The position numbers and the translations under genes are program-made. The notes beneath the pieces were generated by a model. The model was not told the DNA's origin and did no database searches. It worked only from the letters and a program-made list of their open reading frames with translations. Source: Candidatus Poribacteria bacterium (lineage in GTDB: Bacteria > Poribacteria > WGA-4E > PCPOR2b). Taken from it: 64,000 nucleotides of DNA. Shown here in pieces: positions 43,753-46,745 of this stretch; the stretch's first letter is position 1; each line of letters begins with the position of its first letter. The stretch lies in NCBI GenBank assembly GCA_963665285.1, contig OY762266.1, forward strand, positions 960,001 through 1,024,000, in the 5' to 3' direction.

Positions 43753-43781
43753 TTGCAGCAATGATTAAACTTTGATATGAT
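43753..43781 (+). promoter_or_regulatory. Sigma70-like promoter upstream of the nuclease-queD-tgt cluster
   Basis: TTGCAG-N17-TATGAT, followed by AAGGAG SD and GTG 43814. Confidence 0.6.
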
Positions 43782-43813
43782 GTGCTTCATTAAATTAGCA
43801 GAAGGAGAATATC

Positions 43814-44188
43814 GTGGTTAACTTTACACATGATCTGGAATTTGGTGAGGCCGGAGAAGAACAGGTTAGAAATTTGCTTTCATCGGATCCTTTTACCGTT
43901 GAGGTCAAGCGAGATCATCTAGTTTCACGGACAGGAAACATAGCGATAGAAATATCTTTCAAAAATGCACCAAGTGGCATAATGACAACCACCGCTGACT
44001 GGTGGGCTTTCGTATTGTCAGGTTACGAGTACAGAGACGAGGTTATCATTTTCATACAAACAGAGAGATTAAAAAAAATAGTGAGTAAATATAAAGGATT
44101 AAATGGGACCACACGTGGTGGAGATCGGGATACAGCTGAGTTGGTATTGGTCCCTTTGCCCGAAATATTCGATAAAATCCAAATCTAA
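43814..44188 (+). CDS. Small phage-type PD-(D/E)XK nuclease-fold protein
   Basis: G..GE helix, VEVKRD (ExK), TGNIAIE, PSG..T..ADWW; AT-rich coding. Confidence 0.6.
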   Translation: MVNFTHDLEFGEAGEEQVRNLLSSDPFTVEVKRDHLVSRTGNIAIEISFKNAPSGIMTTTADWWAFVLSGYEYRDEVIIFIQTERLKKIVSKYKGLNGTTRGGDRDTAELVLVPLPEIFDKIQI

Positions 44189-44306
44189 CGCAAGTTGTCC
44201 TCCAAAGTTTCAACGAGGCGATAGGTACAATTTGTGTTATCATAGACTAATATCGACCATATTTTTCAAGATTCCTCAAGGCACACTCAAAGAAAGGAAT
44301 TGACGC

Positions 44307-44693
44307 ATGTACACAACCGTTATTGTTCCATTTGAATTTTATGCAAGCCATAGCCTCTCCGTCCGGGAAAAACCCCACAACCACTATTGGACGCTAAAAC
44401 TGTTCGTCAGAGGCACCCCGACGAATGGCATGGTAATCGACATTCTCAAGCTGCGCCAACTCACGGATCCATACGTCGAAAAACTTGCCGATACCTACCT
44501 TAACGAAAATCCTGTCCTTACTGAGGAACAAGCAGGTTGTCCCACCTGTGAAATGCTCGCTGCCTATTTCTACACACACGTCTCCCAAGCGCTAGAAGAA
44601 TTAGCCGTAGATGCTGAACTCAAAGCTATCGAAGTTGAACTGCGTGAGTTGGAAGGGAAGGAGTGGGGAGCGGCGCGCTTAGAGGCAAACTAA
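44307..44693 (+). CDS. QueD/PTPS-like T-fold protein (divergent)
   Basis: F.ASH.L, HxH (EKPHNH), GMVID, L...YLNE, PTCEMLA, V.L.E. Confidence 0.85.
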   Translation: MYTTVIVPFEFYASHSLSVREKPHNHYWTLKLFVRGTPTNGMVIDILKLRQLTDPYVEKLADTYLNENPVLTEEQAGCPTCEMLAAYFYTHVSQALEELAVDAELKAIEVELRELEGKEWGAARLEAN

Positions 44694-44694
44694 A

Positions 44695-46542
44695 ATGACC
44701 GACATGTCAGTTTATAAAACGACAGTCCGGCGGAAGGCTGGCAGGATTGGCGAACTCCACTTGCAACGTAACGGGATAGCACTCCAACTATTATCAACGC
44801 CTATTCTGTACCCCGTTCTTTCATTCATGACTAGCACTAGTACAAACGGGGGTGGGATATGGAAATACCTGCTGAAAGATGTTATGAGACACGACGTGCC
44901 GATCCTCTCGCAGGTATTGCATTTCCTCGATTTCAATCTCACAAGCAAAAACATCAAGTATTGGCGAGAGCAGCCGATGCGTGAGCGTTACCGAGACACC
45001 AACGGTCCCTTTGATGCTCCGATGTTTTTGGATTCAGGTGGGTTCAAACTGCTTTACAACGCTGGACTGTCCCTCTCGGAATTCGGTATCCGTAAGGAGA
45101 CAGAGGCGGATGATATTCTGGCGTTTCAACTCGACTGCGGTGGAGACATCATCGCCTCCTTAGATTATCCACTGCCCCCCGGTCTCGTCCGCTCCGAAGC
45201 AGAAATCCGCATGGATCGGAGCCTTCAGAATGCATTTCGGGTTGCAGAGCGGCTCGCAGAGATGGACAATCCGCCTTACCTGTATATCTGCTGTCATGGA
45301 CAATCTAGAGAAGATATTCAAAACTATGTCAATCAGGTTTTTGACCGGCTGACGGGGGTACTCCCCTCCTTCGGACTTGCAGTCGGCTCGCTCGTACCAT
45401 TGCGGGGCGACAACGACTCGGAGGTGCTATCACGGATATGCGGTGTACTCGACGCCATTCCTGAGTCAGCACGAGATCTGACGCCTATCCACGCCTTCGG
45501 GATCTCTGGCAACCTAACCCCGATACTCGCTTACATGGGGGTCGATAGTTTTGACAGCACAAGTTATATTCAAGCAGCCCGCAGTCAGGCTTATTCACAT
45601 CCGGAGACAGGGAAGAAACTCAAGATTCTGGAGTTAGATTCAATGGAGTGTACTTGCCGTGTTTGCCGGGAAACCTCTCTCGAGGAGATGCAACAGGCAT
45701 TCATGGAGGCGAAAAGCTATCAACGCACCTCAACGGGACAATATAAGAGCTACTACTACGCAAAAATCGCGCTCCACAATTTTGAGATGGAAGCCGAAAC
45801 CCTTAAACATATGGTGGATGCAATTGAAGCCGACAACTCGCTTGAAGCACTAGTTGATCACGCCTCAAAGGCACGTGGCGTTCGAGAAGCAGTCAACTGG
45901 CTAATTGAAAACAGGGATGAATTTGCAGCGAAGATGTCAAAAACCGTTGTCCCAGTCCCCAAACGTGCCGCAGCTCAACCCGCGCAGCAAACCCTTTCAC
46001 TGAACTACACTCCCGACTCATTTTCAATCCCGCCAGATTATCAGCCACCTCCAGAAAAACGGATTCTTTTGACAATCCCCTGTGCTGGAAAGAAGCCGTA
46101 TTCCCTATCGCGCACCCATTCTATTGTGAAAACCAAACTCGACACAGCGTTTGGTGAGGATCACCGGTTCATCCACAAAATCACCCTTTCGGGACTTTAT
46201 GGTCCTGTCCCCGAAGAATTTGAATCGGAGGAGGCGGTAGTCCACTACGATTTTCAACTGTTACCCCGCAACACCACCCAGATTAAACTCGGTGCAGATC
46301 GGTTCAACGCCTATCTTGATAAACATAGACGACACTACGAACTAATTGTCGGTTACGCTACGAGTAACGCCTACCGCAAGGTCTTGCAACTAGTCCAAAA
46401 ACATCATCAGGATTTTATCTTGCTGCCAACCAAACCAAAACAGAAGCGGCTTTCGGAGTTTTTTCGACATATCCACCTCGACGAACTTATAGAGGTATTG
46501 TCCAGCGTTTTGGACGAAGAAACGGGACAGGATTCCAATTGA
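44695..46542 (+). CDS. Archaeal-type tRNA/DNA-guanine transglycosylase fused to an ArcS (DUF5591-like) domain
   Basis: RIGEL..TP.LYPV, FLDSGGF, SLDYP, GSLVP, IHAFG, GVDSFDSTSY, CTCRVC...HN Zn site; C-terminal PCAGKKPYSLSRTH and SGLYGPVPEE. Confidence 0.85.
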   Translation: MTDMSVYKTTVRRKAGRIGELHLQRNGIALQLLSTPILYPVLSFMTSTSTNGGGIWKYLLKDVMRHDVPILSQVLHFLDFNLTSKNIKYWREQPMRERYRDTNGPFDAPMFLDSGGFKLLYNAGLSLSEFGIRKETEADDILAFQLDCGGDIIASLDYPLPPGLVRSEAEIRMDRSLQNAFRVAERLAEMDNPPYLYICCHGQSREDIQNYVNQVFDRLTGVLPSFGLAVGSLVPLRGDNDSEVLSRICGVLDAIPESARDLTPIHAFGISGNLTPILAYMGVDSFDSTSYIQAARSQAYSHPETGKKLKILELDSMECTCRVCRETSLEEMQQAFMEAKSYQRTSTGQYKSYYYAKIALHNFEMEAETLKHMVDAIEADNSLEALVDHASKARGVREAVNWLIENRDEFAAKMSKTVVPVPKRAAAQPAQQTLSLNYTPDSFSIPPDYQPPPEKRILLTIPCAGKKPYSLSRTHSIVKTKLDTAFGEDHRFIHKITLSGLYGPVPEEFESEEAVVHYDFQLLPRNTTQIKLGADRFNAYLDKHRRHYELIVGYATSNAYRKVLQLVQKHHQDFILLPTKPKQKRLSEFFRHIHLDELIEVLSSVLDEETGQDSN

Positions 46543-46745
46543 ATACTACCAAAACCAAACGTCATGAAGAGATCGGGCTGTGTCAAACCTGTCAGCACGT
46601 GAAAGTAATCGAGAACGCTAACCGGAGCCGTTTCTACCTGTGCCTTCTCTCAGACTCCAACGCCGACTTTCAGAAGTACCCACGCCTACCTGTGCTGACC
46701 TGCGCCGGCTACCAGCCCCAGAAGCAAACAAGCCATCAGAAATAA
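46539..46745 (+). CDS. Small Cys-rich (putative Zn-binding) protein
   Basis: GLCxxC...FYLC...KYPRLPVLxCxGY; overlaps the tgt stop by 4 nt. Confidence 0.65.
   Translation: MNTTKTKRHEEIGLCQTCQHVKVIENANRSRFYLCLLSDSNADFQKYPRLPVLTCAGYQPQKQTSHQK

Follow-up and report, generated by a model that had tools for sequence, protein, structure and literature searches.

The stretch of DNA analysed here (the window) comprises 64,000 nucleotides of a Candidatus Poribacteria bacterium (GenBank assembly GCA_963665285.1, contig OY762266.1, positions 960,001 to 1,024,000 of the forward strand), whose genome is represented by one 6.26-Mb contig that is 99% complete. Four open reading frames (ORFs) lie on its plus strand: a nuclease-like ORF1 (43814-44188, 124 amino acids (aa), no Pfam match), a QueD-like ORF2 (44307-44693, 128 aa, Pfam PTPS), ORF3, which encodes a fusion of a guanine transglycosylase (TGT) with an ArcS domain (44695-46542, 615 aa, Pfam TGT and DUF5591), and a Cys-rich ORF4 (46539-46745, 68 aa, no Pfam match). 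An earlier prediction made from the sequence alone (the original prediction) had proposed these four co-oriented genes as a 7-deazaguanine system with its own nuclease, and the layout it described was confirmed: strand, coordinates and motifs of all four ORFs were verified, a single nucleotide separates the QueD-like stop codon from the fusion ATG, the Cys-rich ORF overlaps the fusion stop by 4 nt, and Pfam searches of the 53 window ORFs gave no QueC, QueE, FolE, DndB/DpdB or CD-NTase. The same arrangement is carried by independent public runs (an X2 contig spanning 42800-46945, and X5 and X7 contigs spanning 43290-44567) and is thus not an assembly artefact. An Rfam scan of 42500-48000 gave no match.

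The fusion is genuine, as had been claimed. Its N-terminal part is a guanine transglycosylase TIM barrel (residues ~1-420; Pfam TGT 106-381) and its C-terminal part an ArcS catalytic domain (~441-609; Pfam DUF5591 449-575), each with its catalytic motif intact; no PUA domain was detected by Pfam, and the protein terminates with the DUF5591 domain. The barrel contains the arcTGT-type Asp triad (D113/D157/D287), H201, a preQ0-type Val-Pro pocket (V234-P235, within GSLVP 231-235) and the zinc site C319/C321/C324/H361, residues that have counterparts in the acid/base, base-binding and nucleophile positions of DpdA and TGTs (PMC10164549). H201 occupies the position of His181 in Salmonella DpdA. The ArcS motif PCX3KPYX2SX2H (PMC5699537) is exact at residues 462-475. 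Across 48 aligned family rows, D113, D157, D287, H201, G231, the zinc ligands, C463, K467, P468 and Y469 were kept in 44-48 (C463 in 44), and H475 in 31. The ratio of nonsynonymous to synonymous substitution (dN/dS) to eight orthologues was 0.08-0.14, as compared to 0.03-0.05 for argD. Given the conserved catalytic residues and motifs and the low dN/dS, both active sites look functional.

The AlphaFold model of the fusion (pLDDT 93.8, pTM 0.92) was closest to arcTGT (VIA Z 38.1, root-mean-square deviation (rmsd) 2.6, 346 aligned positions; Foldseek concordant), followed by bTGT (VIA Z 32.2), DpdA (23.0) and the Cap10 complex (19.2), and residues 441-609 matched AF0587 at Z 16.3. Against NCBIfam profiles, the protein scored far below every cut-off: 94.8 of 440 for ArcS (NF040592), 82.5 of 350 for arcTGT (TIGR00432), 20.1 of 306.75 bits for Tgt (TIGR00430) and 19.1 of 200 for DpdA (NF041059), with a PADLOC DpdA match at E 6.6e-5 only. 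Clustering with canonical queuine TGT had been named as a result that would count against the prediction; the Tgt score, a separate clade and the presence of the host Tgt elsewhere show that the fusion is not the queuine tRNA enzyme.

Among genomes of the phylum, the fusion was found in 54/176 (relatives labelled Poribacteria), with a patchy distribution that includes duplication in some genomes and deletion in close sisters. Genome and metagenome scans, from which 80 of 125 and 80 of 158 loci, respectively, were kept, extended the family to cyanobacteria, Chloroflexi and haloarchaea, and three members of one fusion cluster were labelled Asgard archaea. A search of 1.84 billion representatives returned 99 proteins with E values of at most 1e-30, many of them 600-700 aa long; larger fusions of ~1080 aa at some loci were dropped, as the ORF calls there are 635-663 aa. 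Full-length copies are present on two haloarchaeal plasmids, and searches of viral contigs and phage records gave no relatives. In an unrooted tree of 60 rows built by a quick method, once two arcTGT picks in the wrong frame, a truncated row and 11 redundant fusions had been removed, the fusions formed a clade separate from canonical Tgt and from true DpdA rows, and the Poribacteria copies formed one clade within it (support 96). The host keeps its own Tgt, as do five of the five other carrier bacteria tested, and all five haloarchaeal carriers tested retain arcTGT and ArcS; in these carriers, the fusion is supernumerary to the tRNA machinery. QueC proved uninformative as a correlate, being present in 167/176 phylum genomes. 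Three genomes (L060 of G003, G006:C91 and G012) carry an internal deletion of the fusion at the orthologous site but retain the QueD-like and Cys-rich genes, and they keep a second fusion copy, 65% identical, elsewhere. Judged by profile scores and tree position, the fusion is a member of an undescribed family, outside the Dpd system and the arcTGT, ArcS and Tgt families. No description of a TGT-ArcS fusion was found in the full-text literature searched, which excludes most subscription papers, and DUF5591 appeared there together with a TGT only in the available part of one phage paper (PMC10516641).

A link between the ArcS-type domain and DpdC chemistry emerged from profile comparison. The C-terminal domain profile aligned with a profile of nine DUF6884 sequences, DUF6884 being a domain of DpdC (PMC12235509), with an hhalign probability of 90.5 (E 1.3e-6, 108 columns) and the Cys motifs in register; the domain is thus homologous to the DpdC-type domain, yet its motif is that of ArcS. 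True DpdA scored above the cut-off in 20/176 phylum genomes, and in four of four proteins or loci scanned, DUF6884 was either N-terminal (two Poribacteria DpdA and one cyanobacterial TGT-family protein) or the next gene (one more). At five such loci (L384, L385 and L386, from G124, G161 and G103, along with L378 and L382), the DpdA/TGT and DUF6884 genes are adjoined by PD-(D/E)xK and HerA genes, a parallel architecture of inserter plus Cys domain. The host chromosome also contains a stand-alone DUF6884-like gene (4752897-4753322) with no TGT adjoining.

Past work offers several products for such an enzyme. In Vibrio phage nt-1, DpdA2 with an isolated ArcS core gives dG+ in DNA, and STSV-2, which has DpdA and ArcS, contains dCDG (PMC10516641); ArcS homologues have been suggested to act also like DpdC (PMC6884629); and Thermococcus ArcS accepts minimal preQ0 nucleotides and transfers lysine, with RaSEA completing G+ (PMC11298593). 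In the parts of the literature available, dG+ is documented for phage DNA, and dPreQ0 and dADG are reported for cellular DNA. No RaSEA-family gene (TIGR01210) was found in the host genome. As the phage precedents and the ArcS/RaSEA steps differ and RaSEA was not found, the product may be dG+, dADG, dCDG or a lysine adduct. Precursor supply from the host Que pathway, as the original prediction supposed, is borne out by genes for FolE, a QueD-family protein, a QueE-like protein and QueC elsewhere in the genome, from which the fusion can draw preQ0; this QueD-family gene, distinct from the QueD-like ORF2, adjoins folE. The QueE-like gene (chromosome 2915068-2916846) carries a ~330-aa insertion within its CxxxCxxC motif that begins with Cys, ends with His-Asn before a Cys and has a LAGLIDADG-like stretch; by these features it looks like an intein.

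Neighbouring genes were counted for 98 non-Poribacteria loci (L116-L142 and L152-L222; L143-L151 were excluded as resembling Poribacteria), which gave 66 clusters after dereplication at 90%. Defence-type neighbours were present in 58/66 clusters, a figure inflated by a reference set drawn from the same loci, and in 47 of the 50 flanked by 5 kb or more. Per 66 clusters, these were a DpdJ-, DruE- or DrmA-like helicase (34), a second TGT, DUF6884 or HSP90-like ATPase (29), QueC/D/E or YhhQ (22), a DpdK-like PLD (15), GmrSD-N with HEPN (6) and HerA-NurA (2). As a control, canonical tgt genes from the host and ten carrier genomes were examined in the same way, and no such neighbour matched within their 18-kb surroundings (0/11). 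No DpdB was found in the window, and none matched among the 50 and 66 neighbours scanned, the other loci not having been searched for it. In families f1/f3, one DNA methyltransferase lies directly upstream of a fusion in 16/16 copies. As to the co-occurrence with defence islands that the original prediction proposed to check, the fusion family is tied to DNA-defence islands in other phyla; the window contains no restriction arm. The expectation that no full known defence system would be matched also proved correct, and PADLOC scores the islands of the family only in pieces.

The islands show further features. In haloarchaea (L137, L138, L141, L142, L253 and many metagenome loci), the fusion is accompanied by a trio of DUF6884, TGT and HSP90-like ATPase, often with QueCDE and DpdJ- or DruE-like helicases; one such plasmid holds three TGT-like genes, and L172 and L179 each hold two fusion paralogues. 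A GmrSD-N and HEPN pair is present, unlinked, in the host chromosome (3857087-3858819), and shares 49% and 38% identity with the pair located 3′ of the fusion in cyanobacteria. A short TGT-like gene (L387) adjoins dnaB on a Nostoc plasmid, amid MT-A70, AlkB, cytosine methyltransferase and glycosyltransferase genes.

The four genes had been predicted to form one module, with the nuclease linked to the TGT in other genomes. Gene-by-gene distribution rules out such a conserved module: the nuclease-like ORF is a recent insert present in just 3/176 phylum genomes, as against 54/176 for the fusion, though each of its three copies has a fusion gene downstream; losses of the QueD-like gene and of the fusion occurred independently of each other; the Cys-rich ORF is a fixed neighbour; and none of the three lies beside any of the 66 non-Poribacteria fusion clusters. 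These three ORFs are not required parts of the system.

The nuclease-like ORF is part of a low-GC insertion of ~900 bp (43341..44240, GC 0.40; no strand is assigned to this or to the repeats below) that is missing from all 11 sister loci with an orthologous fusion. Five of the 11 join directly across the insertion site, and there the -10 box that the window still keeps is preceded by TTGACA; the insertion replaced this -35 element of the promoter native to the queD-like gene. Besides the nuclease-like ORF, it brought with it a dispersed genomic repeat (43385..43490, 34 near-full genome copies) and a promoter-like site. This site (plus strand, 43753-43781; TTGCAG, 17 nt, TG-extended TATGAT) is the sigma70-like promoter of the original prediction, and it is visible but weak, with just 8/12 consensus positions and no place among the sites listed by a promoter scan (3, with 5.3 expected). 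Repeats are present on both sides, as the original prediction described, namely the dispersed repeat, a MITE-like repeat downstream (46915..47055; 19 near-full genome copies, 15 at 90% or more) and a short palindromic REP-like repeat at 43517-43542 and 47146-47171 (49-62 genome copies), but they are dispersed genome-wide and have no cassette role. The MITE-like repeat is absent at the orthologous site of sister genomes and a related strain. Because the repeats occur in many copies throughout the genome and the downstream one, over whose position sister loci are continuous, is a separate recent insertion, a mobile cassette bounded by repeats was ruled out.

The nuclease-like protein matches phrog_13596 (E 9e-26), a mainly viral family (44 phage records and 580 viral contigs) whose phage members sit amid T7-like replication genes; no Que, TGT or methyltransferase reference matched in 80/80 kept phage loci. 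Its fold weakly resembles PD-(D/E)xK enzymes (VIA Z 5.5 to NhoI, PvuII and RecU-like folds; rmsd 4.1-4.8, ~100 aligned positions). E30-x-K32 is invariant in the family, the first catalytic Asp is unclear, the strand that holds it in one relative is missing from the family alignment, and named neighbours in the Atlas scored <0.9. The ORF is under purifying selection (dN/dS 0.24-0.31), and a predicted complex with the fusion scored 0.00, which is no evidence in either direction. Elsewhere, the slot upstream of the fusion holds a methyltransferase and one of two restriction enzymes, and the placement of the nuclease-like ORF upstream of fusions would fit either a hot spot for insertion or a functional link of a loose kind. 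From its relatives and its absence at sister loci, the ORF is, we conclude, a passenger of the recent insertion and a small phage-family protein. Elsewhere in the window, at 24494-26476, an N6/N4 DNA methyltransferase gene is followed directly by a 372-aa ORF with no Pfam match in lower-GC DNA, probably a type II restriction-modification (R-M) pair.

The QueD-like protein, a paralogue with the QueD/PTPS fold, retains the zinc histidines and two glutamates, with REKPHNH in place of CxxxHGH, and scores 35 bits against TIGR03367 (cut-off 89.25). When compared with the QueD, PTPS-III (ExxHGH) and DpdL (LxxxHRHxF) motifs (PMC5041015 and PMC10516641), its ExxHNH is nearest PTPS-III; it has neither the QueD cysteine motif nor that of DpdL, and it has no phage match. 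As a folB gene lies at 50600, no PTPS-III bypass is needed. The gene is intact beside 4/12 orthologous fusions and broken or missing beside 8/12, is intact in three genomes that have lost the fusion at this site, and is unlinked from the fusion in genera g5 and g11. Since intact copies are conserved (dN/dS 0.05-0.10) and the gene adjoins the fusion in two families, the link in Poribacteria is old but optional, and the QueD-like gene is dispensable. The Cys-rich ORF belongs to an unnamed bacterial family, with Atlas clusters in Actinomycetota, Planctomycetota and Acidobacteriota; it was found in 18/19 same-genus genomes, seven of which have no intact fusion beside it, and was not found in families f2-f4. 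It is a fixed chromosomal neighbour outside the system.

Given these results, the 615-aa protein is probably a one-chain 7-deazaguanine DNA modifier that stands as an orphan in this window. DNA is the most likely target because of the neighbourhoods in other phyla and the phage precedent; from the domains, residues, neighbourhoods and distribution described above, we infer this substrate and, with it, the product, the nitrile chemistry and the defence role. Host FolE, QueD, QueE and QueC would supply preQ0, which the barrel would exchange for a target guanine by the double displacement of TGTs, with D287 as nucleophile and D113 as acid/base. The C-terminal domain would then convert the nitrile, either to an amidine, giving dG+ or an adduct with lysine, or to the amide of dADG, presumably through attack of Cys463 on the nitrile, as in QueF-type chemistry. 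In other phyla, the fusion would be the self-marking arm of Dpd-like islands, with the restriction arm formed by a DpdJ/DruE/DrmA-like helicase and PLD, by GmrSD-HEPN or by similar partners, and in Poribacteria it would persist as an orphan modifier without its island. A broader picture, which we hold only as a tentative and rather doubtful one, is of DpdB-independent self-marking immunity in both bacteria and archaea, with archaeosine, or a lysine-amidine adduct that is not known from DNA, placed in a cellular chromosome by one polypeptide, two paralogous TGTs in haloarchaea (perhaps one per strand or motif), and a phage-derived 124-aa nuclease recruited twice as a minimal restriction partner in some Poribacteria.

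Several observations weigh against an orphan DNA modifier. The barrel is nearer the tRNA enzymes than DpdA both in structure (Z 38.1 for arcTGT and 32.2 for bTGT, 23.0 for DpdA) and by profile (82.5 bits for arcTGT, 19.1 for DpdA), the family is not sister to DpdA in the quick tree, where long branches leave the deep order unsure, and H201, considered as a hallmark of DNA enzymes, was dropped as not diagnostic, since 6/6 Poribacteria DpdA rows have Gln there. The Poribacteria copies form a single clade, and most of them stand alone and evolve under purifying selection, which is how a housekeeping RNA enzyme would behave; no DpdB-family gene (PF14072) was found in the host genome and, with the references used, neither was a DpdJ-like helicase or PLD. 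The inflated neighbour count belongs here as well, as does the adjacent R-M pair, which also occurs without the fusion (31/40 g8 genomes, fusion 0/40), and all three nuclease-like copies are upstream of a fusion, at two different chromosomal sites.

The alternative that survives best, although we consider it unlikely, is that the fusion modifies RNA, at least in Poribacteria, as a one-chain archaeosine-like tRNA pathway leading from preQ0 to G+ or preQ0-Lys. Its best structural and profile match is arcTGT, including the Val-Pro pocket, ArcS accepts minimal preQ0 nucleotides (PMC11298593), and the gene is vertical, solitary and conserved in many Poribacteria; however, haloarchaeal carriers possess arcTGT and ArcS in any case, the host yielded no RaSEA-family gene, the fusion is patchy (54/176), with two copies in some genomes and a deletion in close sisters, and its neighbours elsewhere are DNA enzymes. 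Improbable in our view is a regulatory deazaguanylating enzyme of a defence island that acts on a protein or small nucleotide and restrains an effector (helicase, GmrSD-HEPN or STAND), as proposed for Cap10-type and TIM-B proteins. The wide variation of island partners, the match to the Cap10 complex at Z 19.2 and such roles of TGT-fold enzymes in the published work available are consistent with this, but both active sites of the nucleic-acid pathway are retained, no CD-NTase or constant effector is a neighbour, and the fusion has survived for long without partners in Poribacteria. Least probable of all is a minimal R-M or toxin-antitoxin pair of the small nuclease and the fusion with the QueD-like and Cys-rich proteins as helpers, for which the three of three placements at two sites, the purifying selection and the weak nuclease-like fold speak, but which is opposed by the 51/54 fusion carriers without the ORF, its recent insert, the other R-M genes that the same slot takes, its phage relatives among replication genes, and the absence from the alignment of the strand that bears the first catalytic Asp in one relative.

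Beyond the fusion enzyme, little is gained from the way the four genes stand together in this window. A single-gene inserter-plus-tailoring enzyme in cultured cyanobacteria, Chloroflexi and haloarchaea would make archaeosine-type bases in cellular DNA directly testable. The shared domain links ArcS and DpdC chemistry, the enzyme points to a family of defence islands that PADLOC scores only in pieces, and it would offer a compact means of labelling DNA with deazaguanines.

Among known systems, type IV CBASS and QatABCD are set apart, as no CD-NTase or QatA/B with a QueC-like Cap9/QatC was found among the four ORFs or the 53 window ORFs. The TGT of the BRC system (PMC12839542), Cap10 of type IV CBASS and TIM-B are, as here, TGT-fold enzymes in defence islands without DpdB/C; in the parts of those reports available, no fusion to an ArcS core is described, and their partners (PglZ, CD-NTase and PAACC) do not recur beside the fusion. 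With arcTGT (TgtA) and ArcS, the fusion shares the closest fold and pocket, the ArcS catalytic motif and the zinc site. It differs in having no C2/PUA domains and in a barrel that keeps all three Asp, whereas the N-terminal barrel of ArcS is non-catalytic; moreover, carriers keep their own arcTGT and ArcS, and the host yielded no RaSEA-family gene. The Dpd system (dpdA-K of Salmonella Montevideo; PMC10164549, PMC5699537, PMC12235509) likewise combines a TGT-fold inserter with a Cys-motif tailoring domain, the DUF6884/DpdC domain to which the C-terminal domain of the fusion is homologous, and Que genes, YhhQ, a DpdJ-like helicase and a DpdK-like PLD are also present in islands of fusion relatives. 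In contrast to Dpd, the barrel scores well short of the DpdA cut-off, one chain holds both the inserter and the tailoring domain, DpdB was matched neither among the scanned neighbours nor in the host genome, and haloarchaeal islands add another, paralogous TGT together with DUF6884 and an HSP90-like ATPase; of the restriction operon dpdD-K, no DpdJ-like or PLD match was found in the host genome with the references used, DpdJ/K-like genes being located only beside distant relatives, and the window has no restriction arm. The nearest precedent is DpdA2 with ArcS2 of Vibrio phage nt-1 (PMC10516641), which are two separate phage genes, whereas here one chromosomal polypeptide carries an arcTGT-like barrel and no relatives of it were found among viral contigs or phage records; like the fusion, that pair joins a transglycosylase to an isolated ArcS core (DUF5591, PCX3KPYX2SX2H), and it yields dG+ in DNA. 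The fusion is therefore best read as an enzyme that would work like a DpdA plus ArcS2 or DpdC pair without being a member of the Dpd system.

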